Assembly (NCBI GenBank): GCA_963719225.1
Contig: CAVRAY010000001.1
Location: 3,424,001-3,488,000, forward strand
Reading direction: 5' to 3'
Origin: Thermoanaerobaculia bacterium
GTDB taxonomy: Bacteria > Acidobacteriota > Thermoanaerobaculia > UBA5066
DNA: 64,000 bases
Shown here: positions 19,630 through 33,377 of the stretch, piece after piece
How the letters are laid out: each line of letters starts with the position of its first letter
How positions within the stretch are numbered: position 1 is the stretch's first letter
Notes under the pieces: model-generated
What the model was told of the DNA's origin: nothing
What the model saw: the letters and a program-made list of their open reading frames with translations, nothing else
The model's database searches: none
Translations under genes and position numbers: made by a program

Positions 19630-20598
19630 ATGACGGAGCCGCTCGAGGACCGCTTCGCGCGACACGTCGAGGAGGGCCGCCTCTTCGCGGGCGCGCGCAC
19701 GCTCGTGGTGGCGCATTCGGGCGGCAGCGACTCCACGGCGCTTCTCCTCCTCACGACCGCATGGGCGTCTCCGCGCGGCGTCCGGGTCATGTCGGCGCAC
19801 GTCGCGCACGGCCTCCGAGGCGCGGCGGGCGACGCGGACGCGCGTTTCTGCGCACGGCTCGCCGCGACTCTTTCGGTGCCTTTCACGCTCCATTCCGTGG
19901 ACGTCCCCTCCGGACGGAGGAAGGGCGAGAGCGTCGAGGCGGCGGCGCGGCGCCTGCGGTACGCGGCGCTCCTCGACCTTTCGCGCGGCCTCGACGGCCC
20001 TCTCGTCCTCACGGGCCATACGCGCGACGATCAGGCCGAGACCGTCCTTCTCCACCTCGAGCGGAAGCTCGGCCGCGGCCGCGGCGGCATCCGCGCGCGC
20101 CGGAACGACGGCGTCGTCCGCCCGCTTCTCCCCTTCTCGCGCGCCGAGCTCCGGAAGTTCCTCGCGGAAAAAGGCGTTCCCTTCCGCGAGGACGAGACGA
20201 ACGAGAACGAGGTCTTCGCGCGGAACCGGATTCGCCGCAAGGTCCTGCCCGAGATGGAGCGAAGGGACCCCGGCAGGACCGCGCGGCTTGCGCGCGCGGG
20301 AGCGAAATGGGGTGAAAGGCTGGACGCGCTCGATGAACGGCTCGTCGAGGCGATGGCGAAAGAGAAGATTTCTTCGAAGGGTGTCTGGCCCCGTTCCTTC
20401 TTCGCCCGCCTCTCGCCCGAAGAGGCTGGCCGCCTGCTCGTGAGGGCGGCCGGAGCCGGCGGCCGCGTACCCGGAAAGGCCCAGCTGAAAAAGGTCCTGA
20501 GCCGCATCGAGAGAGGCGACAAGACCTTCGGCGAGGAGTTCGCGGGCGGGCGGATCGAGGTCGACCCTCGCCGCGTTCGGTTCGTCCCGCGACGGTAG
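19630..20598 (+). CDS. tilS: tRNA(Ile)-lysidine synthetase (short form)
   Basis: PP-loop AHSGGSDS, AHVAHGLR, EAAARRLRY, TGHTRDDQAETVL, VRPLL, EDETN, RNRIR. Confidence 0.92.
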   Translation: MTEPLEDRFARHVEEGRLFAGARTLVVAHSGGSDSTALLLLTTAWASPRGVRVMSAHVAHGLRGAAGDADARFCARLAATLSVPFTLHSVDVPSGRRKGESVEAAARRLRYAALLDLSRGLDGPLVLTGHTRDDQAETVLLHLERKLGRGRGGIRARRNDGVVRPLLPFSRAELRKFLAEKGVPFREDETNENEVFARNRIRRKVLPEMERRDPGRTARLARAGAKWGERLDALDERLVEAMAKEKISSKGVWPRSFFARLSPEEAGRLLVRAAGAGGRVPGKAQLKKVLSRIERGDKTFGEEFAGGRIEVDPRRVRFVPRR

Positions 20599-20654
20599 AT
20601 TTCAGCGCGCTTCGCGCGCCGGAGGATTTCTTAGAAGGTGATTAGGATAGGGAC

Positions 20655-22121
20655 ATGAGCATTCGCAGAAGCGCTCTTCTGGCGGCCTGCGCCGCCGCCG
20701 CCCTCTTCCTACTCGAAGAAAAATCCTCTTTCTCCGCCTCCTCCGCTCCGCCGCCTCCGGCATCGGCTGCCCCCTTCGACGCGTCGTTCACCGCACGCAC
20801 GATGCGCGTGGACCTCTTCCACACGGGCGGGCCGAAGGGCGAGATCGTGGCGCTCGATCGCGCCGTGAACGACGGACCGTGGCCGGGCAGCCGCACGCGC
20901 CTCCTCGACGAGACGAACCTCGGGACGCACTTCTTCGAGGTGCGCAGCGCACGCACGAACGGCGTCCTCTTTTCGCGCGGGTATTCCTCGATGTACGCCG
21001 AATGGGAGACGACCGGAGAACAGAAGAAGGCGTCGCGCACGTTCCCCGAGTCGCTGCGCTTCCCGTGGCCGAAAGAGCCGGTCCAGATCGTCCTGTCCCG
21101 GCGCGACGCCGCGGGCGCTTTCCAGCCGCTCTTCACGGCGACCGTCGACCCCGCCGCTGCGAACCTCGCCCCGCGCCCGCCGCTCGGGAAGGTCTGGACC
21201 GTCTTCGAGAACGGGCGCGCCGCGACGAAGCTCGACCTCCTGATGCTCGGCGAGGGCTACGCCGAAAAGGACCTTCCTAAGTTCCACGCCGACGTGAAGA
21301 AGCTCGTCGACCTCCTCTTCTCGTACGAGCCCTTCAAGTCGCGTCGCTCGGACTTCAACGTCCGCGCGCTGGACCTGCCGTCGGCCGAGAGCGGCGTCTT
21401 CCGGCCGGACTCGAAGATCTTCCGGCGCACGCCTCTCGGCGTCCAGTACGGGATCTTCGGGTCGGAGCGTTACGTCCTCACCTACGACGAGCGCGCGCTG
21501 CGGGAGGCGGCCTCGGCCGCGCCGTACGACTTCCTCGAGATCCTCGTGAACGACGCGCGCTATGGCGGCGGCGGCATCTTCAACGACCAGGCGACTGCGG
21601 CCGTCGACTCGTCGTGGGCCGAGTACCTGTTCGTGCACGAGTTCGGCCACCACTTCGCGGGCCTCGCCGACGAGTATTACGGGTCGGACGTGGCCTACGA
21701 GACGGGCGGCGAGAAGCCCGAGCCCTGGGAGCCGAACGTGACCGCCCTGAAGGACCCGAAGGCGCTGAAGTGGGCCGACCTCGTCGAGAAGGGGACGCCG
21801 CTGCCGACTCCGTGGGAGAAGGAAGCCTTCGAAAAGCAGACCCGCGCCATCCAGGTCGAGCGCAGGAAGCTCGTGGCTTCCGGCGCGCCGCCATCCGCGC
21901 TCGACGACCTCTTCCGCCGGCAGATGGCCGCCGATTCGAAGCTCCTGTCCTCGATGACGTGGTCCGGCAAGGTCGGGGCTTTCGAAGGCGCTGCATACGA
22001 GGCGAAAGGCCTTTACCGGCCGTCGGCCGACTGCATCATGTTCACGCGCGATCCGGGCGGCTTTTGTCCGGTCTGCCGGCGGGCGATCTCCCGCGTGATC
22101 GACGAGCACTCCCGGCCCTGA
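20655..22121 (+). CDS. Secreted peptidase M64 (IgA peptidase family)
   Basis: Signal peptide; LGEGY, YGGGGIFN, HEFGHHFAGLADEY, WEPNVT, GAFEGA.Y, CIM, FCPVC. Confidence 0.9.
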   Translation: MSIRRSALLAACAAAALFLLEEKSSFSASSAPPPPASAAPFDASFTARTMRVDLFHTGGPKGEIVALDRAVNDGPWPGSRTRLLDETNLGTHFFEVRSARTNGVLFSRGYSSMYAEWETTGEQKKASRTFPESLRFPWPKEPVQIVLSRRDAAGAFQPLFTATVDPAAANLAPRPPLGKVWTVFENGRAATKLDLLMLGEGYAEKDLPKFHADVKKLVDLLFSYEPFKSRRSDFNVRALDLPSAESGVFRPDSKIFRRTPLGVQYGIFGSERYVLTYDERALREAASAAPYDFLEILVNDARYGGGGIFNDQATAAVDSSWAEYLFVHEFGHHFAGLADEYYGSDVAYETGGEKPEPWEPNVTALKDPKALKWADLVEKGTPLPTPWEKEAFEKQTRAIQVERRKLVASGAPPSALDDLFRRQMAADSKLLSSMTWSGKVGAFEGAAYEAKGLYRPSADCIMFTRDPGGFCPVCRRAISRVIDEHSRP

Positions 22122-22166
22122 GGGGCCCCCTTTCCCTCGAGGTCCCCCTGCTAGACTTACACGTCT

Positions 22167-22730
22167 GTGGCTCTTGTCACCGACGAGCTCTACGGCCCCC
22201 AGGACATCGCCCGACGCGTCGCAGACGTGGGCCGGAGGATCGGCCACGACTACCCGGATGGCAACATCGTCCTCATCGCGGTCCTGAAGGGCGCGGGATT
22301 CTTCGTCGCGGACCTGGCCCGCGCCGTGTCGCGGCCGGTGCGCTGCGAATACATCGACGTGCTGCGCGACGGGGAGAGCGAGAAGGTGGTCAACTATCAC
22401 TTCCTCGCGCCCTTCGACGTCGCGGACACCCATCTCATCATCCTCAAGGACGTGATCCGGAGCGGAGTGGTCGAGACCTGGCTGCAGAATCAGCTGCGGG
22501 AAGAAAAGCCCCGTTCCATCCGTTTTGCCTGCGTGGTCGATCATCCCCAGGACAGAAAAAGTGCGCTGCGCGCCGATTACGTCTTGTTTCCCGCCGAGGA
22601 AGCGGTCCTCGTGGGCTATGGTATGGAGTATCTGGGCGAGGGCGGGAACTTCCCCTTCATCGCGCAGGTCAGAACCGAAGGGGAGGCGCCGTTCGAGTCC
22701 ACAGCGGACCGCCGCGCCCGTGCCCGATGA
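22167..22730 (+). CDS. hpt: Hypoxanthine phosphoribosyltransferase-like protein with degenerate active site
   Basis: AVLKGAGFFVADLAR and VGYGMEY...NFPFI; tilS-hpt-ftsH synteny; PRPP loop reads ILKDVIRSG. Confidence 0.75.
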   Translation: MALVTDELYGPQDIARRVADVGRRIGHDYPDGNIVLIAVLKGAGFFVADLARAVSRPVRCEYIDVLRDGESEKVVNYHFLAPFDVADTHLIILKDVIRSGVVETWLQNQLREEKPRSIRFACVVDHPQDRKSALRADYVLFPAEEAVLVGYGMEYLGEGGNFPFIAQVRTEGEAPFESTADRRARAR

Positions 22731-22772
22731 ACCGAATCCCGAGAGCCGGCGTATGAGAGGCGAGGGCACAAG

Positions 22773-24698
<1,926 letters not shown>

Positions 24699-24936: not shown

Positions 24937-26856
24937 ATGAACACGCTCTGGATCGTCGTGATCGCGACGGTCGTCATCTACCTGGCCTACAACTTCTACG
25001 CGCGGAAGATTGACCGGGACATCATCAAATCCGACGCGCGGAAGGCGACGCCGGCCACGATGTACATGGATGGCGTGGACTTCATGCCCACGAGCAAGAA
25101 CGTCCTCTACGGCTACCACTTCAAGTCCATTGCCGCGGCGGGCCCGATCGTCGGCCCCATCACGGCGGCGAATCTGTGGGGGTGGTTCCCGTCCCTCCTG
25201 TGGCTCGTCATCGGGGTGAGCTTCATCGGATGGGTCAGCGACTACTCCGCGATCATGGTCTCGGTCCGGAACGACGGGAACAGCCTGAGCGCGATCTCGC
25301 ACAAGCTCATCGCCCCGCGCACGCGGACGATCCTCTTCATCTTCATCTTCTTCTACCTGATGCTCCTCGCCGGAGCGTTCGTCGGAATCCTCGCGGCGAT
25401 CCTCTCCGCCCGCCCGGACGTGCCCTTCGGAATCATCACCCTGGCTCTCATGGGGCTCCTCGCGGGCCAGATGATGTACCGCTGGAAGATGAACCTGATC
25501 CTCGTCACGGCGATCGTCGTGGCCGTGACCCTCGGCGCGATGGCGCTCGGGCCGTGGGGCCAGACGAAGAACGACAAGGGAGCTCTCGTGCAGGGACCGG
25601 TCGGCGCGGCGGTCGTCTCGCTGAACGCTTCCGTCGACAACCTGAACGCCAGGCAGCCGATCCTCTCCCTCGAGGATCCGACGAACGCGGACCCGCGCAT
25701 TCCGGCTCCCGGGCCGGACGGCAAGCGTCCGACCACGGCAGCCTACGACGCGGCCACGAGGCAGATCCGGACGCTTCCGAACTACCTCCTCTGGATGGTC
25801 TTCCTCTTCGCCTTCTCCTATTGCGGCGCGAACATGCCCATCTGGCGGTTCGCCCAGCCCGTCAACTACATCGGCTTCTGGGTCATGCTGATCACGATCG
25901 TCCTCTCGGCCATCGGCGCTGTCGTCGCCCCTCTGACGGGCGTCCTGGACGCGGGCGGGAAGGCGATCGGCGCCTTCGCCCTCACGGCCGTCAAGGACCT
26001 CGGCTTCACGGCTCCGGCCAAGCCGTTCACGGCGTGGCAGCCGCTCTGGCCGATGCTCTTCGTGACGATCGCCTGCGGCGCGATCTCCGGCTGGCACGCG
26101 CTCGTCGGCTCGGTCGGGACGGCACGGCAGCTCGAGTACGAGACCGACGGCCTCCCGGTCGGCGGCGGCTCGATGTTCGGCGAGTACACGCTCGCCCTCC
26201 TTTCGCTCGTGGCCGTCTCCATCGCGGGCGTCGGAGGCGGCGGCGGCAGGTTCGCCGCAGGCGTCGGGAAGCTGATCTACGCCGGCACCTTCAAGGCGAT
26301 TCCCGAGGTTTTCGGCACCGCGCTCGGGTTCGGCGCCTTCGTCGTCATCGTCCTGACGGTGACGCAGCTCGTCTTCCGCGTCATGCGCGTCACGCTCACC
26401 GAGTGGGCGGGCGAGGCGATTCCGCTCGTGCGCAACATGCACGTCTCGAGCATCATCTCGATGCTGCTGACGCTCGCCCTCGTCCTGACGGGCACCTGGG
26501 TCTACCTGTGGCAGATGTTCGGCGCGTCGAACCAGCTCATGGCGGCGCTGAGCCTCCTCGTCGTGACCGTCTGGCTCAAGTCGGAGAAGCGGAATCCGAG
26601 CTACGCGCTCTACCCGATGCTCTTCATGTACGTCACGACGCTCTTCGCCACGGCCGTCACGGCACGCAACCTCTACGTGACGATCGCGGCAAACCCGGCG
26701 ATGACCGGGCTCCCGGTCGCGGGCGCCTGGGCGATGATCGTCCTCGCGGGTCTTCTCATCGTCGCGGCGCTCTTCATCGGATGGGACGGCCTGAAGGCCT
26801 ACAGGAAGTACAGCGCGGCGCCGGTTCCGAAGCCAGTCGTCGCGGCGGCGGCCTAG
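24937..26856 (+). CDS. cstA: Carbon starvation CstA family transporter
   Basis: TPA.MYMDGVDFMPT, LYGYHFKSIAAAGPIVGP, PMLFVTIACGAISGWHAL, WQMFGASNQL; AGGAG RBS. Confidence 0.92.
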   Translation: MNTLWIVVIATVVIYLAYNFYARKIDRDIIKSDARKATPATMYMDGVDFMPTSKNVLYGYHFKSIAAAGPIVGPITAANLWGWFPSLLWLVIGVSFIGWVSDYSAIMVSVRNDGNSLSAISHKLIAPRTRTILFIFIFFYLMLLAGAFVGILAAILSARPDVPFGIITLALMGLLAGQMMYRWKMNLILVTAIVVAVTLGAMALGPWGQTKNDKGALVQGPVGAAVVSLNASVDNLNARQPILSLEDPTNADPRIPAPGPDGKRPTTAAYDAATRQIRTLPNYLLWMVFLFAFSYCGANMPIWRFAQPVNYIGFWVMLITIVLSAIGAVVAPLTGVLDAGGKAIGAFALTAVKDLGFTAPAKPFTAWQPLWPMLFVTIACGAISGWHALVGSVGTARQLEYETDGLPVGGGSMFGEYTLALLSLVAVSIAGVGGGGGRFAAGVGKLIYAGTFKAIPEVFGTALGFGAFVVIVLTVTQLVFRVMRVTLTEWAGEAIPLVRNMHVSSIISMLLTLALVLTGTWVYLWQMFGASNQLMAALSLLVVTVWLKSEKRNPSYALYPMLFMYVTTLFATAVTARNLYVTIAANPAMTGLPVAGAWAMIVLAGLLIVAALFIGWDGLKAYRKYSAAPVPKPVVAAAA

Positions 26857-27710
26857 GAGGGTCCGCGAGCCCGGAGCGCGAGAACGAGAACGACCTTCTT
26901 CGGGGCCGGCGCGAAGTCTTCCGGCCGCCTGGAGAAGCCGTCGAAGAACGCGAGGGACAGGCGGTCTTCCTCCCGCTTGAAGATCACCCATCCCCCGCGT
27001 TCCCGCGAGGGCGGCACCGCGGCGAGCAGAAAAGAGTCTGGCGCGGCCGGATCGACGGCGAGAGTAAAACTGGCCGTCTCTCCGATTCCGTTCGTCGCGA
27101 CGAGCTTTCCGTCATGGAACGTCCAGGTGCCGCTCGAGAACTTTCGATCGGGAATGGCCAGGCCGTTCACCGTGGCGCTGCGCAGATCCCAGGTCCCGTC
27201 GAGGAGACGAAGGACGACACGCGCGCCGCCTGCGTCCGGCGAAACCGCGGTCACGACGTTCGTCGGCGCCGACGGCGGTCCCAGAGTCCCCGCGAGGGAG
27301 TCCGCCTCGGCCGGCTGGAGACCGGCGATCACGAGGACTCCATTCGTGATCCCCGCGACGACGACGGGCGCGGCGCGAAGCCGGCCAGCCACCACGATGC
27401 CGAAACGCCGCCCCACGTTTCGCGACGTCGCCTCGGCGAGCTTGCGCGTGCCGTCCGGCGTCAATACGAGCCGGATCTCTCCGCCTCCCCCCGGACCGCG
27501 TACCGCGTCGGCATTCGCTACAGCCGTTTCATCCAGCAGGGCGGCGGAATCCAGGGCGATCTCCTCGGCGCCGCCTCCGGGCAGGGCGAGGCGCCATATC
27601 CTCGAGCCGGGAGCGCCGGCCGACGTGACGAGATGGACGCCGAAGGAGCCGCCCGCCGCGGCGGCAGCGGATGAAAACGAAAAAATCGCAGCGCAAAGGG
27701 CTCGTCTCAC
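26853..27710 (-). CDS. Secreted protein with SecD P1-head-like domain and TIGR03067-like domain
   Basis: Signal peptide; LTPDGTRKLAEATSRNVGRRFGIVV.G...APVV...I.G; then LDGTW...G.WTF.DGK. Confidence 0.6.
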   Translation of the reverse strand: MRRALCAAIFSFSSAAAAAGGSFGVHLVTSAGAPGSRIWRLALPGGGAEEIALDSAALLDETAVANADAVRGPGGGGEIRLVLTPDGTRKLAEATSRNVGRRFGIVVAGRLRAAPVVVAGITNGVLVIAGLQPAEADSLAGTLGPPSAPTNVVTAVSPDAGGARVVLRLLDGTWDLRSATVNGLAIPDRKFSSGTWTFHDGKLVATNGIGETASFTLAVDPAAPDSFLLAAVPPSRERGGWVIFKREEDRLSLAFFDGFSRRPEDFAPAPKKVVLVLALRARGPS

Positions 27711-27719
27711 GTCGGGTTC

Positions 27720-28358
27720 CTAGGTCCGAAGCGCGCGCTCGCCGATCGTTCGCACCGCCGCGAAGACTTCCTCCGCGGGAGCGGACGCGGCGGGCAGGTC
27801 GACGTGGAGCTGCAGGTGAGGCTCGGTCCGGCGCACCGACAGGCGCCGGACCGTGAGGCCTCCGCCGCGGGCGAGCTCCAGGAGATCGTCGGCGAGAGGC
27901 AGCGTGCCCTCGACCTTGTAATAGACCGGCCGCGCGCCGCTTGCCGGGGCCTCGCGCACGGACCAGCGCTCCGAGCCCATGCGGCGGAGTGCATCGCGTC
28001 CCGCGAAGCTCTTGCGGTCGAGCGCCTCGAGATCGCCGTGCGGCGCGCGTCGCAGGCGCGCGCGGAGAATGAGCGCGTCGCGCCGGCCGCGGCTCCTCGA
28101 AAAACCCCAGAGCCACGGGACGTCGCGCGGCTCGAGGAAGATCACGAGCGTCACTTCCTCGAACGGGGCCTTGGGCTTCACGAGGGAGAGCTCGACCGCC
28201 GTCGTCCCGAGCCAGCGGACCGTCGTCCTCTCGCAGAGGAGGTGAAGCCCTCCCTGCATCCAGCGGAGAGTGGCCTTTCCCTTCCGCACGTTCCAGATGC
28301 TCCCGGCCGCGAACCACACCATGACGAGCGCGACCAGGAGCATGAGCGGCGTGGACAG
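27720..28358 (-). CDS. Hypothetical membrane-anchored protein
   Basis: N-terminal TM helix; GGAGGT 5 nt before an in-frame CTG at 28358 (alternative ATG 28343). Confidence 0.7.
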   Translation of the reverse strand: MSTPLMLLVALVMVWFAAGSIWNVRKGKATLRWMQGGLHLLCERTTVRWLGTTAVELSLVKPKAPFEEVTLVIFLEPRDVPWLWGFSRSRGRRDALILRARLRRAPHGDLEALDRKSFAGRDALRRMGSERWSVREAPASGARPVYYKVEGTLPLADDLLELARGGGLTVRRLSVRRTEPHLQLHVDLPAASAPAEEVFAAVRTIGERALRT

Positions 28359-28433
28359 GTGGGACCTCCCGGCGATCTCTTCGCCGGCCGGAGACGATAG
28401 CAGAGCGTCCCAAACGTGCTAGGGTTCTCTCGA

Positions 28434-28712
28434 GTGGAAACGCGCGGCAGCCGGGGAAAAGCGATCCGGGAGTTCCTGTACGGGATGTTCGGCTACGAGC
28501 ACGCGCAGCAGGCGCTCGAGATCCGCGCCTCCATGGAGTCTCTCTTCATGGTCGTCACGTTCGGCGACATGCTCGGCGTTCCGGTGATGCCCCCGTATTA
28601 CAGCCTCCGACTCCTGCCGCACATCGTCGGCAGCCTCGAGACCTGGAAGCGGCGCACGCTTCGCGAGCGGCAGTTCGGCGACGGCCACGACCAGCATCTG
28701 CACGGGGTCTGA
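28434..28712 (+). CDS. Small CstA/ArsA-associated protein, paralogue 1 (cory-CC-star-like)
   Basis: RASMESLFMVVTFGDMLGVPVMPPYYSLRLLPH, close paralogue of the next ORF; TAGGGT 8 nt before GTG at 28434. Confidence 0.8.
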   Translation: METRGSRGKAIREFLYGMFGYEHAQQALEIRASMESLFMVVTFGDMLGVPVMPPYYSLRLLPHIVGSLETWKRRTLRERQFGDGHDQHLHGV

Positions 28713-28800
28713 GAGCGGCTTTTTTCCCCGTCAAGATCGAGGAAGCGCCGGCGAGTCTCGCGACATCGCCGGCGTTGCCGTCTCCGGGCCACATTTCATT

Positions 28801-28814
28801 AATGCATCTGCATC
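28801..28814. promoter_or_regulatory. Second copy of the ATGCA-N2-TGCAT operator-like site
   Basis: AATGCA-TC-TGCATC, about 23 nt before a TACCTT -10-like hexamer. Confidence 0.55.
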
Positions 28815-28884
28815 GCGCCCGGCGGCGCCGGTTGTCCTACCTTTTAGTGGGCCGGGTCGCGTCCGGCAGCGAGAGGAGAAGACG

Positions 28885-29172
28885 GTGTCCGACAAGAACA
28901 AAGTCGTCAGGCCGGGCGGCTTCAAGGGACTCTGGCACGGCTTCAAGGAAACCATCTACGGCATGTCCGCTCACGACATGAGCCGGGCGGCGCTCCGGAC
29001 GCGGGCCTCCATGGAGCACCTGTTCATCCTGATCACGATGGGAGACCTGCTCGGGATTCCCATTCTCCCGCCGTACTACAGCCTTCGGCTCCTTCCCCAC
29101 GTCGTTCCGCAGATCGCGACGTGGAAGCGCCGGATGCTCCGGGAGAAGGACGTCTCCGACGCGATGTTCTGA
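28885..29172 (+). CDS. Small CstA/ArsA-associated protein, paralogue 2 (cory-CC-star-like)
   Basis: RASMEHLFILITMGDLLGIPILPPYYSLRLLPH; AGGAG RBS. Confidence 0.85.
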   Translation: MSDKNKVVRPGGFKGLWHGFKETIYGMSAHDMSRAALRTRASMEHLFILITMGDLLGIPILPPYYSLRLLPHVVPQIATWKRRMLREKDVSDAMF

Positions 29173-29214
29173 GGTCTTCCCGGAAAAAAGAGCCGTCGAG
29201 AAGGAGAACGCATC

Positions 29215-30201
29215 ATGGGGATGAAAGAGGTCTTCGAGCAGAACCCCGGCCGCCGGTACATCATGTTCGGCGGCAAGGGCGGCCTGGGTAAAACGACGTT
29301 CTCGGCCGCGACGGCCTACTGGCTCGCGAAGCAGGGCAAGAAGGTCCTCGTCTTCTCCGTCGATCCCCAGGCCTCGCTCACCGACATCTTCCAGAAGGAC
29401 ATCTTCGGCAAGGGCCCGGTGAAGATCATGGAGAACCTGTGGGCGCAGGAGATCGACGCCGACAGCCACATCAAGGCCTACCAGGAGGAGATCCGCAAGA
29501 AGATCCGGGACATGTACGGTCTCGAGAAGGTGCCCGAGGAGATCGAGAGTTACATCCAGGCCGCCAGCGCCGAGCCGGCCATGGAGGAGAGCGCGATCTT
29601 CGACGCCGTGGTGGACGTCGTCGTCCAGGAGAACTACGACTACTACATCTACGACCTCGTCCCGCTCGGCCACGCGCTCTACTACCTCAGCATGGCGAAG
29701 GTCTACGACGAGTGGATCAACAAGGTGACGAAGCTGCGCGAGGACATGCGCGAGTACGAGGAGATGGTCAGCCGCCTCAAGCGCGAGAAGGAGACCGAGC
29801 AGGACGCGATCCTGAACGAGCTCGTCTACATCAAGGGACGGATCAACGCGTCTTCGAAAATCCTCACGGACAAGGACAAGACGGCGTTCTTCTTCGTCGT
29901 GACGCCCGAGGACATGATCATCGTCGACACGGAGAAGGCCGCGAAACTCTTCGCCCAGTTCGACGTCCCGATCGGCGGCTACGTCGTCAACCGCGTCATC
30001 CCTCACGAGCTGATCGACCAGAACATCCCCGACTACCTGCGCAACCGGATCCAGATGCAGGACAAGTACATCGGAAGCATCCGGACGACGTTCGGAAAGG
30101 ACGTCCTCGCCTACGTGCCGGAGCTCGAGCGCGACGTTACGGGTCTTCCGATGATCGAGAAGCTCGCCGGGATCATGTACGGCAACGGAAAGCTCGGCTG
30201 A
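29215..30201 (+). CDS. ArsA/Get3 (TRC40) family ATPase, subunit 1
   Basis: GGKGGLGKTT, SVDPQASL, EIDA, altered switch II DLVPLGH, VVTPE, VVNRV; no Cys. Confidence 0.92.
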   Translation: MGMKEVFEQNPGRRYIMFGGKGGLGKTTFSAATAYWLAKQGKKVLVFSVDPQASLTDIFQKDIFGKGPVKIMENLWAQEIDADSHIKAYQEEIRKKIRDMYGLEKVPEEIESYIQAASAEPAMEESAIFDAVVDVVVQENYDYYIYDLVPLGHALYYLSMAKVYDEWINKVTKLREDMREYEEMVSRLKREKETEQDAILNELVYIKGRINASSKILTDKDKTAFFFVVTPEDMIIVDTEKAAKLFAQFDVPIGGYVVNRVIPHELIDQNIPDYLRNRIQMQDKYIGSIRTTFGKDVLAYVPELERDVTGLPMIEKLAGIMYGNGKLG

Positions 30202-30229
30202 AGCCGGGGACGCGAGGAGAGAAACGGCC

Positions 30230-31243
30230 ATGCCTGAGATCCAGACTTCCATGAGCGACTACATCAAGGACCACGCCGGCCTGAAGTACATCTTCTTCGG
30301 CGGAAAGGGCGGCGTCGGAAAGACGGTCTTCGCGGCCGCGACCGCGCTCCACAACGCCCAGCTCGGGCGCCGCACGATGCTCGCCTCGACGAACCCCGTC
30401 CACAGCCTCTCGAGCCTCCTCGGCCAGAACGTGCTCGGCAAGCACACTCCGGTCGACGGCGCTCCGAACCTGTGGGCGTACGAGATCGAGACGAAGGAGA
30501 CGATCGAGCGGTCGAAGGTCGAGATCCGCGAGAAGATCAAGTGGTTCCTCAAGTTCGCCGACATCTCCACGAAGGCCGAGGATTTCGTGGAGTCGGCCAC
30601 CATGAACCCCGCCTTCGAGGAGTCGGCAATGTTCGAGAACATGATCGACCTCATGTTCAAGGACGAGTACGACGTCTACGTCTTCGACACGGCGCCCACC
30701 GCGAACGCACGGCGCCTGCTCGGCATGTCCAAGGTCTACTCCCTCTGGGTCAACAAGATGCTCAAGAGCCGCGAGGAGGCGAAGACCCTCCGCGAGCTGC
30801 TCTCCTTCACCAAGAAGAAGGAGGAGGACCCGCTCATGGCGTACCTCCTTTCCTTCCGCGACCGGATGGAGCACGGACGCGTGCTCCTCACCGACCCGGC
30901 CAAGACGTCGTTCTTCTTCGTGACGCTCCCCGAGGCGCTTCCGATCGCCGTCATCACGCGCTTCATCCAGTGGTTCCACGATTTCGGCATCCCCGTAGGG
31001 GGCGTCCTCGTCAACATGCTGATCGACAAGGCCTCCGTCGGCGCCGGGGCGGCCGACTTCGTGAAGAACCGCGTCGCGATGCAGGACGAGCACATGAAGA
31101 CCGTCTGGCAGAAGTTCGACGGCAGCGTCCGCGCCATCGTCCCGCTCTACGAGACGGAGATCCGCGGCGTCCCGATGCTCAAGCGGCTCGGCGACGCGAT
31201 GTTCGCGGAACCGGTGGAGGCCGTCCTTTCCGGCTCCCGCTAG
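30230..31243 (+). CDS. ArsA/Get3 (TRC40) family ATPase, subunit 2 (switch I Asp to Asn)
   Basis: GGKGGVGKT, STNPVHSL, FDTAPTANA, VTLPE, LVNML; no Cys. Confidence 0.92.
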   Translation: MPEIQTSMSDYIKDHAGLKYIFFGGKGGVGKTVFAAATALHNAQLGRRTMLASTNPVHSLSSLLGQNVLGKHTPVDGAPNLWAYEIETKETIERSKVEIREKIKWFLKFADISTKAEDFVESATMNPAFEESAMFENMIDLMFKDEYDVYVFDTAPTANARRLLGMSKVYSLWVNKMLKSREEAKTLRELLSFTKKKEEDPLMAYLLSFRDRMEHGRVLLTDPAKTSFFFVTLPEALPIAVITRFIQWFHDFGIPVGGVLVNMLIDKASVGAGAADFVKNRVAMQDEHMKTVWQKFDGSVRAIVPLYETEIRGVPMLKRLGDAMFAEPVEAVLSGSR

Positions 31244-31455: not shown

Positions 31456-32715
31456 CCGGCGGGAGCTCCCTTCAACGCCGAGGTCCACCAGTGGACCTAC
31501 GACGCCATCGGGAATAGGCTGACGAGCCAGGTGAACGCCGCGATCAAGACCTACACGTACGAGAAGATCGGCGCGAACCCGAAGAACGCGCAGAAGCTGA
31601 TGAACGATGGGACGAACGCTTACGCCTACGACTTCAACGGAAGTCAGACGTCACGGACGGGCTTCGGCTTCGTGAACGACCCCGACAACCGCCTGAGCTC
31701 CATCACCGGCGGAACCGCCGCGAGCTACACGTACGACTACCAGGGGCGGAGGACCTCGAAGACGGTCGCAGGCGTGACGACGAAGTACCTGTACGACGGC
31801 CTGAATCTGATCAGAGAAGCCAAAGCAGGCGTGAACACCGACTACGCCTTCGGCCCCTCAATCGATGAACCACTGGCCCTCTATGCCTCGGGCGCCGTCA
31901 GTTACTTGAACGCGGACGGGCTTGGCAGCATCGTGGCGACGAACTCGACTGCAGGAACGGTCACGCACAGCTCGATCTTTGACGCGTGGGGCGCGGTGAA
32001 GGGCGAGACGGGCACACGGATTCATTCCTTCACCTATACGGGGAGGGAGACGGGAGAGGCCGGGCTACATTTCTATAGGGCACGGGTGATGCAGCCGGGC
32101 GTCGGACGCCTGACTCAAGAGGATCCGTTGGGTTTGGGCCCGAGCGTTTATGCGTATGCCTTCAACGACCCTGCTCGCCTTCTCGACCCGCTGGGCGCGG
32201 CGGGCGAGGCGCTCGACTTCTCGCCAGACAAAGGCCACCACTTCTTCCCCCGAGCTGAGTGGGGGAAAGTGCCCGGCCTTTCACAAGAGGCAAAAGACAT
32301 CTTCGACCATACCAAAACAGGCGGCAAGCTTCCCACTGATATTCACTACTGGAACGGCCCGAACGGTGTGCATGGTCAATACAGCACTGCGACCCGCGAG
32401 CTCTTCGACGAGTTCGTTAAGTCGCGCGGAATCGACCCTACGAAGATGACCCGCGCGGAAGCCGAGGAGTTTATTCGGACGATAATCAACTCTCGGCGCG
32501 GCCCGATTAGGAGGCTGCTCGACCCAATTCGGCGCTGGATGCGGGCGAATCGGCTACGCGGGAAGACCTTCTGCTTCGGCCCGGTCGATTTCGGCCTCGC
32601 GATCGCCGAGATGCTCTTGGAGGACCAGGAAGAGAGTCAACTCGACTCTGATTACATTCGCTGGAAGTACTTCCACGGGCCAATGCCGGGCGGCGCAGCT
32701 GGAGCGATTTACTGA
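31456..32715 (+). CDS. Orphan (5'-truncated) Rhs core with C-terminal putative nuclease toxin
   Basis: YD repeats start abruptly (WTYDAIGNRL, YTYDYQGRR); core end YTGRE..GLHFYRAR...EDPLG...YAYAFNDP..LDPLG; C-terminus with GHHFFP...H...H; first in-frame start GTG 31531 lies mid-repeat. Confidence 0.85.
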   Translation, partial: PAGAPFNAEVHQWTYDAIGNRLTSQVNAAIKTYTYEKIGANPKNAQKLMNDGTNAYAYDFNGSQTSRTGFGFVNDPDNRLSSITGGTAASYTYDYQGRRTSKTVAGVTTKYLYDGLNLIREAKAGVNTDYAFGPSIDEPLALYASGAVSYLNADGLGSIVATNSTAGTVTHSSIFDAWGAVKGETGTRIHSFTYTGRETGEAGLHFYRARVMQPGVGRLTQEDPLGLGPSVYAYAFNDPARLLDPLGAAGEALDFSPDKGHHFFPRAEWGKVPGLSQEAKDIFDHTKTGGKLPTDIHYWNGPNGVHGQYSTATRELFDEFVKSRGIDPTKMTRAEAEEFIRTIINSRRGPIRRLLDPIRRWMRANRLRGKTFCFGPVDFGLAIAEMLLEDQEESQLDSDYIRWKYFHGPMPGGAAGAIY

Positions 32716-33377
32716 TGCTGGACAACGGGTTCGTACTCACCTACGGGCCGGGTTTGCGTGGGCCTCATCGATTTTGTGGCGTTAACGAGACCGCCGATGC
32801 CCAGTGTCCGAACTGTAAGAGGCCGCTTCTGCAGCTCTTCGTATTCGACATGAACGACCGACCGTTGGAGTCGCTGGGGCACGCGCTCTCGGCTGACCGG
32901 CTCCCACTTCATTGGTGCTGGACGTGCGACATTCTCAGGGGGCCGCTAACCTACGAGTTGCTGGACCGGGGTCGACGCATCAGGCTATTGACCTACAACC
33001 ACGGGCGCTTCCAACCGGATACTCCGTACCCGGACTATCCGATCTACTTCCCAGGCACCGATTCGGGACTCGAGGAGATTCCAGCCGTCGTGAGCGGGCA
33101 GGTTAGGAACCTCAATCGACGGGAAATCCGGCTCAGTACTGTTGATGGCGAAGCGTGGGCTAGACCTAGGCATCAGCTCGGGGGGGAGCCGTTCTTTTCA
33201 GGTGGCCTACCCGGCCGGCGCGTTTGTCAGCAGTGCGGAGCCGAGATGGAGTTGCTCGGGGCCGTTGCAGACAAATGCACGGACGCCCGCGGCTTCGCCT
33301 CGAATGAGTTCGTCCAGTTGCTCTTCTGGGTCTGCCCGCCTTGCCGGATCCTGCGTGGGGAACAGGATCTAGAGTAG
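32715..33377 (+). CDS. Putative immunity protein (YwqG/DUF1963-like, CxxC pairs)
   Basis: Coupled by TGATG to the toxin; CPNC..PL.QLF, HQLGGEP, CQQCG.EM.LL, FWVCPPC; lower GC. Confidence 0.7.
   Translation: MLDNGFVLTYGPGLRGPHRFCGVNETADAQCPNCKRPLLQLFVFDMNDRPLESLGHALSADRLPLHWCWTCDILRGPLTYELLDRGRRIRLLTYNHGRFQPDTPYPDYPIYFPGTDSGLEEIPAVVSGQVRNLNRREIRLSTVDGEAWARPRHQLGGEPFFSGGLPGRRVCQQCGAEMELLGAVADKCTDARGFASNEFVQLLFWVCPPCRILRGEQDLE

Follow-up and report, generated by a model that had tools for sequence, protein, structure and literature searches.

The stretch of DNA described here comes from a Thermoanaerobaculia bacterium of the phylum Acidobacteriota (GenBank assembly GCA_963719225.1, contig CAVRAY010000001.1, positions 3,424,001 to 3,488,000 of the forward strand), and the whole stretch of 64,000 nucleotides is referred to below as the window. 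Between positions 24,937 and 31,243 it carries a six-gene locus, composed of a gene for a CstA-family carrier, a gene on the opposite strand (Y), two small paralogues (X1 and X2), and two ATPases of the Get3/ArsA type (A1 and A2). The carrier, the two small paralogues with their shared motif, and the two single-domain, cysteine-free ATPases had been pointed out in a first-pass annotation of the sequence, and all of them were confirmed. That annotation also mentioned one divergent gene with a transmembrane (TM) anchor; Y is present, but two minus-strand genes follow cstA, one of them a passenger. The features are:

24937..26856, + strand: cstA, CstA-family multipass carrier, 639 amino acids (PF02554, 337 bits)
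26853..27710, − strand: passenger gene, 285 amino acids, with a SecDF P1-head-like and a TIGR03067-like domain, outside the module
27720..28343, − strand: Y, 207 amino acids, N-terminal TM helix and predicted cytoplasmic alpha/beta domain with a CCDC47-like fold
28434..28712, + strand: X1, CstX/DUF7990 paralogue, about 92 amino acids (longest open reading frame, ORF, from 28416), predicted helical hairpin with a His-rich C-terminal tail
28885..29172, + strand: X2, CstX/DUF7990 paralogue, 95 amino acids, near-invariant core, predicted helical hairpin
29215..30201, + strand: A1, Get3/ArsA-like ATPase, 328 amino acids, catalytic Asp retained in SVDPQASL, altered switch II DLVPLGH, predicted live site
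30230..31243, + strand: A2, Get3/ArsA-like ATPase, 337 amino acids, STNPVHSL, switch II DTAPTAN, signature Lys, predicted dead site

Within its family, the six-gene locus is unremarkable. Of 531 relatives confirmed in a scan with A2, the best 80 loci were retained, and this sample, although biased to close kin, spans four phyla (Acidobacteriota, Myxococcota, Pseudomonadota, and Chloroflexota). By hand count, the order cstA (+), Y (−), X1, X2, A1, and A2 (+) is complete in 62 of the 80 loci; 16 others end at contig edges and agree with the full order as far as they are visible, leaving only L047, which is rearranged, and L064, which has neither cstA nor Y within 7 kb. Because the full order is found in 62 loci, the arrangement is far beyond chance, and the joint occurrence of two small genes and two ATPase genes, which the first-pass annotation had taken for a unit, holds in other genomes. 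The passenger gene, in comparison, is found in 3/80 related loci. In even genome samples, whose counts include the centre genome, X is present in 10 of 151 genomes of this phylum, 16 of 151 of the phylum of L047 (Chloroflexota), and 2 of 201 of the phylum of the proteobacterial locus L045, and the module is therefore widespread but patchy.

The system is a variant of a gene cluster already described in print. Castillo & Saier (2010; PMC2963123) described 26 instances in which CstA is accompanied by an ArsA homologue; 24 of these include CstX, a protein of about 90 amino acids, and five archaea also possess CstY, a protein of about 210 amino acids with a single TM segment. Adjacent ArsA pairs, which form their cluster 15, were found in two organisms and two CstX proteins in two, with Pyrobaculum arsenaticum having both. 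They noted that the metal cysteines are absent, mentioned that Asp can be replaced by Asn in the SXD motif, described CstA, CstX, and ArsA as co-evolving, and proposed CstX as the coupling element between ATP hydrolysis and CstA. The locus studied here shares with that cluster the combination of cstA, CstX of about 90 amino acids, and a single-domain, Cys-free ArsA of about 330 amino acids, as well as the lack of ars genes at the locus. In contrast, the available text places CstY in archaea only and not with paired ATPases, whereas here Y occurs with paired ATPases, and it suggests homodimers, with no description of complementary A1/A2 motifs, a CstY fold, an antisense Y, or a His tail. The additions to the 2010 account are thus the complementary ATPases, Y as a module member with a predicted CCDC47-like fold, and the His tail of X1 as against the Cys-Cys of single-copy relatives; relative to the first-pass annotation, they are that the divergent Y is a conserved member with this predicted fold and that one ATP site is predicted to be dead. 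The annotation had called the system uncharacterized. No experimental test of the CstX coupling idea was found in the literature searched, which consisted mostly of papers outside subscription, but the gene cluster, one example with two CstX and two ArsA, and the proposal of coupling have all been in print since 2010 (PMC2963123). The first-pass annotation had likewise suggested that the small proteins might couple the ATPases to CstA or else be clients of the ATPase pair.

The ATPase pair and the small proteins

A1 and A2 are 34% identical, have a single domain, and contain 0 Cys each. Both lie above the cut-off of TIGR00345 (233 and 204 bits vs 135) and carry a P-loop of the GKGGxGKT type, and neither reaches the two-domain ArsA profile TIGR04291 (106 and 102 bits vs 650). 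Get3/TRC40 and archaeal single-domain relatives provide the best solved full-length matches, the closest being the archaeal proteins 3UG6 and 3ZQ6 (E 1e-52 to 1e-62), with Escherichia coli ArsA far behind (about 1e-30). The two ATPases differ from each other in invariant motifs: A2 has STNPVHSL in 79/79 ORFs with a P-loop and DTAPTAN in 80/80, and A1 has SVDPQASL in 73/73 and DLVPLGH in 74/74. The Asn of A2 aligns with the Asp of the STDPAH motif in 3UG6 and 3ZQ6, so that the catalytic switch-I residue is Asp in all 73 A1 and Asn in all 79 A2 proteins. In the independent Chloroflexota sample, these motifs recur in 10 of 11 ATPase pairs, and the remaining, divergent pair still shows Asp in one member and Asn in the other.

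The Asp replaced in A2 is presumably the same residue as D57 of yeast Get3. The D57N variant of the yeast protein retains ATP binding and is blocked in hydrolysis (PMC12506534). The signature Lys, the first of the P-loop, is kept in 79/79 A2 proteins and lost in 23/73 A1 proteins, and in a tree of 72 A1 proteins, from which two short ORFs were dropped and in which the P-loop was masked, this loss is one event (support 98/89). In the Get3/ArsA class of ATPases, this Lys acts on the nucleotide of the partner subunit, and the observed pattern is the one expected if the Lys of A1 faces a dead site and that of A2 completes a live one. Together, the Asp/Asn split and the Lys pattern predict an A1–A2 heterodimer with one live site; the heteromeric pair that the first-pass annotation had suggested is thus strongly implied by complementary motifs. 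In this, the pair would depart from Get3/TRC40, ATPases that bind TM helices and hand them to a membrane receptor: it is a predicted heterodimer with one Asp-to-Asn site, it lacks CxxC, and no tail-anchored client has been identified. A third, unlinked ArsA/Get3 homologue is encoded elsewhere in the genome (G000:C2:361087-362340, L104); it is 26–27% identical to the pair and has a C-terminal extension of about 100 residues.

The same sequences bear on the idea of an arsenite-resistance pump in which A1 and A2 together serve as a two-piece ArsA. A split two-gene ArsA that works with Acr3 has been cited (PMC2963123), and the genome does hold one SBF/Acr3-family gene. However, the ArsA of arsenite pumps is a two-domain protein of about 580 amino acids with metalloid-binding Cys, whereas A1 and A2 are single-domain and have none; ArsB was not found in the genome, which is 97% complete; the single SBF/Acr3-family match lies about 3.08 Mb from the module; and ars genes and cstA clusters have been reported as mutually exclusive (PMC2963123). 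With no Cys and no linked arsB or acr3, such a pump is very unlikely, to the point of being barely credible, as the first-pass annotation had argued. Its remark that ars genes are missing needs a narrower wording: it extends to the whole genome for ArsB, and for arsC and arsR it covers the genes scanned in and beside the locus.

X1 and X2 are 55% identical over 73 amino acids, and both contain the motif RASME.LF...GD.LG.P..PPYYSLRLLPH. They score 37.1 (X1) and 34.6 bits (X2) with the cory-CC-star family NF041419, below its 80-bit cut-off, and lack the C-terminal Cys-Cys, X1 ending in HLHGV and X2 in DAMF. DUF7990 (PF25952) is carried by all 120 listed X relatives (Atlas score 0.96), while a Pfam scan of the window proteins returned no PF25952 match on X1 or X2. 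The view that these proteins are cory-CC-star/DUF7990 relatives without the terminal CC is therefore borne out. Their description as small membrane proteins is less so: the paralogues are real, but their hydrophobicity was overstated, given that the best 19-residue Kyte-Doolittle window reaches 1.8 in 0/75 X2-type and 6/64 X1 proteins, as compared with 52/59 Y proteins. X1 and X2 are predicted to be weakly hydrophobic hairpins, and the model of X2 is a two-helix hairpin of low confidence (pLDDT 71, pTM 0.32).

In the even genome samples, the number of X genes follows that of the ATPases. In each of the four single-X loci examined, there is just one ATPase, of the canonical type, and X ends in Cys-Cys; paired ATPases always occur with two or more X genes where the contig shows the region. 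This correspondence suggests an X2:A2 core that became X1X2:A1A2. A third, and sometimes a fourth, X paralogue downstream of A2 is frequent in Chloroflexota (L057, L072, L075, L108, L109, and L123). Three apparent X–X fusions were discounted: P0128 looks chimeric, P0129 resembles a frameshift join, and P0130 lies on a 1.1-kb contig.

A small protein next to CstA has a precedent in E. coli, where CstA needs its small neighbour YbdD for pyruvate uptake (PMC5847655). YbdD and YjiX end in Cys-Cys, and a selenocysteine version exists (bioRxiv 2022.07.06.499078). The two systems have in common a CstA-family carrier with an adjacent small protein, as well as the Cys-Cys ending that YbdD shares with single-copy X. 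They differ in that YbdD belongs to DUF466 and X to DUF7990, a comparison made by family label only, and in that no Get3-like ATPase or Y is described with E. coli CstA–YbdD in the available text.

These tails have to be considered in relation to metal or redox handling, in which X tails would bind a metal and the ATPase dimer would deliver it to, or remove it from, CstA, the latter being either a metal-dependent carrier or a carrier of metal complexes. ArsD/ArsA and the G3E/CooC-type NTPases offer an analogy for metal delivery. At least 3 His are present among the last 10 residues in 61/64 X1 proteins, the Cys-Cys of the single-copy X proteins recurs in YbdD, YjiX, and the selenocysteine version, and a thioredoxin-like protein with an HCxHC motif adjoins the module in 15/109 loci. 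On the other hand, X2 has no such tail, neither His nor Cys is present in the acidic or hydrophobic tails of several X1-position proteins in the even samples, and Cys is not conserved in the ATPases. The recurring neighbours listed include no prominent metal transporter or metalloregulator, and a search of this genome for the HCxHC protein did not find it. Metal handling is therefore regarded as distinctly unlikely.

Protein Y and its fold

Y belongs to a family of at least 548 clusters at 50% identity. It agrees with the published description of CstY in size, single N-terminal TM helix, and location, and is, on that description, a putative counterpart of archaeal CstY. A language-model search with Y gave a weak lead to CCDC47 (0.79), the subunit that, together with Asterix, makes up the PAT complex. 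An AlphaFold2 model of Y, built from 75 sequences, has a pLDDT of 94 and a pTM of 0.88, and with this model Foldseek returned only three matches with E <0.001, namely chain 4 of 7TM3, chain 4 of 9I78, and chain 7 of 6W6L. In an independent structural search of 48,161 chains, chain 4 of 7TUT came top (Z 16.4, root-mean-square deviation 2.9 Å, 203/207 residues), followed by chain 4 of 9I78 (Z 14.7) and, third, TtfA (6T84; Z 9.0, 151 residues), the rest being at or below 7.3. Foldseek and VIA-align therefore agree that the top matches to Y are CCDC47 chains. CCDC47 has been modelled over residues 76–447, with a block of TM domain plus globular domain at 76–370 (PMC12572126), and the 9I78 chain is assigned to CCDC47 because its length of 371 fits the modelled residues and its aligned part, 81–366, falls within this block; the matched chains of 7TM3, 6W6L, and 7TUT are inferred to be CCDC47 from the entries and the shared match.

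The TM helix and globular domain of Y superpose on CCDC47 of the PAT complex (7TM3, 7TUT, 6W6L, and 9I78), and, as in PAT, Y goes with small helical proteins and a multipass protein, here as genes. In contrast to CCDC47, Y is only 9–11% identical, stops at the equivalent of residue 396 (7TUT) or 366 (9I78), the end of the globular domain, and has neither the C-terminal latch and coiled coil for ribosome and Sec61 nor a luminal domain. The system also differs from PAT in that X has no demonstrated likeness to Asterix and in that Y is optional and tied to one carrier. PF07946 is the commonest Pfam match in the Y family (8/94 diverse Y proteins, best E 0.0056), and in a rescan 6/47 Y proteins matched it, all in register at residues 6–46. 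CCDC47 holds Asterix through a contact of its TM domain (PMC12572126). TtfA, whose fold is related to that of Y, is an accessory of the mycobacterial MmpL3 transporter (PMC6593404), that is, a bacterial accessory of one transporter, but the match is far weaker than that to CCDC47 and the transporter family is different.

According to the available parts of two papers, PAT components are lacking in prokaryotes (Sundaram et al. 2022; PMC9630114) and PAT has no obvious bacterial homologues, with the shielding of marginally hydrophobic helices in bacteria being largely uncharacterized (a 2026 review; PMC13261788). In the literature searched, no prokaryotic CCDC47, Asgard included, was found, nor any report of a CCDC47-like module member or of a single-site ATPase pair.

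That a single locus encodes both Get3-like ATPases and a protein resembling CCDC47 might also indicate a general GET/PAT-like targeting pathway that serves many membrane proteins, with cstA a mere neighbour. This is highly improbable, given that the module is patchy and tied to one cstA clade, and that Y occurs almost only where X does: X is present in 9 of the 10 genomes (of 151) that carry Y, and the remaining Y gene lies about 0.8 kb from a contig end. No longer or fused form of Y was found between 427 and 2000 amino acids, which is weak evidence, and distant Y proteins used as queries in two metagenome scans recovered no loci.

The carrier, its neighbours, and the gene layout

CstA of this locus belongs to a divergent clade and is 28–35% identical to the product of a second cstA in the genome (L103), around which no X or ArsA was found. 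The characterized member of the CstA family is named as a pyruvate/proton symporter, and ATP is thus not obviously needed for transport. In proteobacterial loci (L045:7960-13312 and relatives), A2 is followed by genes for an acyl-CoA synthetase, the E1a, E1b, and E2 components of a 2-oxoacid dehydrogenase, and an acyl carrier protein; E1b follows the module in 14 loci, all in one related clade. The acyl-CoA synthetase and dehydrogenase neighbours hint at a carboxylate substrate.

On the proposal of Castillo & Saier, A1–A2 would stay docked on CstA via X1/X2 and make it an ATP-driven importer in the manner of ArsAB; Y would then be only a scaffold. The ArsA–ArsB precedent, the reported co-evolution of CstA, CstX, and ArsA (PMC2963123), the divergence of this CstA from the ordinary one of the genome, the high conservation of all core parts, and the proteobacterial neighbours, which fit carboxylate scavenging, all speak for it. 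However, A1 and A2 resemble ArsA less than they do single-domain proteins of the Get3 type, only one of the two ATP sites is predicted to be live, the characterized CstA is a proton symporter, and the partner Y has a fold of the chaperone type. An energized importer is, on balance, somewhat unlikely.

Antisense Y belongs to the module, and there is almost no space around it for signals. The gap between the last sense codons of cstA and Y is 2–25 nucleotides in 41/56 loci, and the start codons of Y and X1 overlap in 5/42 loci (heuristic starts); the layout makes the module a candidate non-contiguous operon. In some Chloroflexota, Y has the same orientation as X (L047, L119, and L121). A true gene on the + strand opposite Y was considered and rejected: codon-position variation is 0.24/0.20/0.37 in the frame of Y, and antisense frames able to share the wobble position of Y are open in at most 6/56. 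X1 probably starts at the GTG at 28434, where a close relative has ATG. A promoter scan gave 0 sigma-70 sites, and terminator-like sites are at chance level (3 vs 3.8 expected). RNA runs are from relatives only (share at most 0.16); contigs from four of them cover the module and bridge cstA–Y, X2–A1, and A1–A2, and show neither strand nor a single transcript.

Other genes recur at or lie near the module. The HCxHC thioredoxin-like protein, of 130–145 amino acids, is mostly encoded just upstream of cstA (loci include L105–L109, L112, L113, L065, L066, L073, L075, and L125) and could represent a seventh component. Close to the module, a gene of the ketopantoate-reductase family also turns up repeatedly, in L006 and 14 further loci from Acidobacteriota and some Chloroflexota. 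Upstream in the window, positions 19630–24698 hold genes co-oriented with cstA for an M64 peptidase, a phosphoribosyltransferase, and a putative ftsH-like product, and, as we take it from a motif, a tilS-like gene; these upstream genes are absent among the recurring module neighbours listed. Downstream, at 31531–33377, a short RHS-core gene (394 amino acids) is followed by a Cys-rich gene (220 amino acids), with a G+C content below the window average, resembling an orphan polymorphic-toxin/immunity pair.

A possible assembly system for CstA

The reading to which we tentatively lean is that the six genes form a private kit by which one CstA carrier is assembled or activated at the expense of ATP. 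In such a kit, X1 and X2 would be required small partners of CstA, as YbdD is for E. coli CstA; they would be passed on by the ATPase and lie at the surface of the membrane. The Get3-like A1–A2 heterodimer, with one live ATP site, would load these hairpins onto CstA, only the A1 site hydrolysing, through the Asp of A1 and the Lys of A2 acting in trans. Y would steady X1/X2 in the membrane as an optional intramembrane chaperone or scaffold. CstA itself would still work as a secondary importer, probably coupled to protons, that takes up a small carboxylate or a peptide, and ATP would be spent on assembly or switching rather than on each transport cycle. This assembly kit is favoured because E. 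coli CstA needs YbdD, because the number of X genes follows that of the ATPases, because the ATPases are nearer to single-domain Get3 than to ArsA, and because Y has the predicted fold of a membrane-chaperone subunit and, more distantly, of a transporter accessory. The conserved gene order, the complementary ATPase motifs, and the proton symport of the characterized CstA also speak for it. A complex prediction for CstA (residues 1–621), X1, X2, and Y, scored on the placement of Y, ended in "no answer" (score 0.00, without controls) and is not used as evidence.

Several observations weigh against it. One locus (L091) has X and ArsA with no cstA in the 13 kb examined, and the pair may thus serve other partners. 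Y is dispensable, being carried by 12 of 26 X-bearing genomes, and many 2+2 loci are without it. Since the Lys of A1 was lost once, its loss amounts to one natural experiment, not 23. X2, A1, and A2 are very highly conserved, as would suit a permanent complex no less than a transient one. Neither Foldseek, run on the low-confidence model of X2, nor sequence searches gave a match for X2, Asterix included. As for Y, the PF07946 match is below the gathering score (best 16.3 bits vs 27.7) and confined to the hydrophobic TM/juxtamembrane segment, CCDC47 was not recovered when PDB sequences were searched with profiles from two alignments of Y, and the ribosome-binding latch is missing. Moreover, a shared fold does not show a shared function, as TtfA also belongs to this class of folds, as do, with a weaker resemblance, chaperones of type III secretion.

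A stronger version holds that Y is a true prokaryotic homologue of CCDC47 and that, with Asterix-like X1/X2 and a single-site Get3 heterodimer, it would form a client-specific, ribosome-independent PAT/GET-like machine that builds CstA. This appears rather doubtful; if true, it would supply a prokaryotic root for a multipass-protein chaperone of the endoplasmic reticulum, in a non-contiguous operon. The predicted fold of Y offers a way to ask where PAT came from, and a small bacterial protein of this fold, next to a Get3-like pair and one multipass client, would be a compact system for examining the role of the domain without the ribosome. Likewise, the putatively half-dead ATPase pair gives a handle on the role of CstA-linked ArsA homologues, since a single substitution in A1 would be expected to inactivate both subunits together. 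With its CCDC47-like member and the predicted single-site ATPase pair, the system is directly testable.

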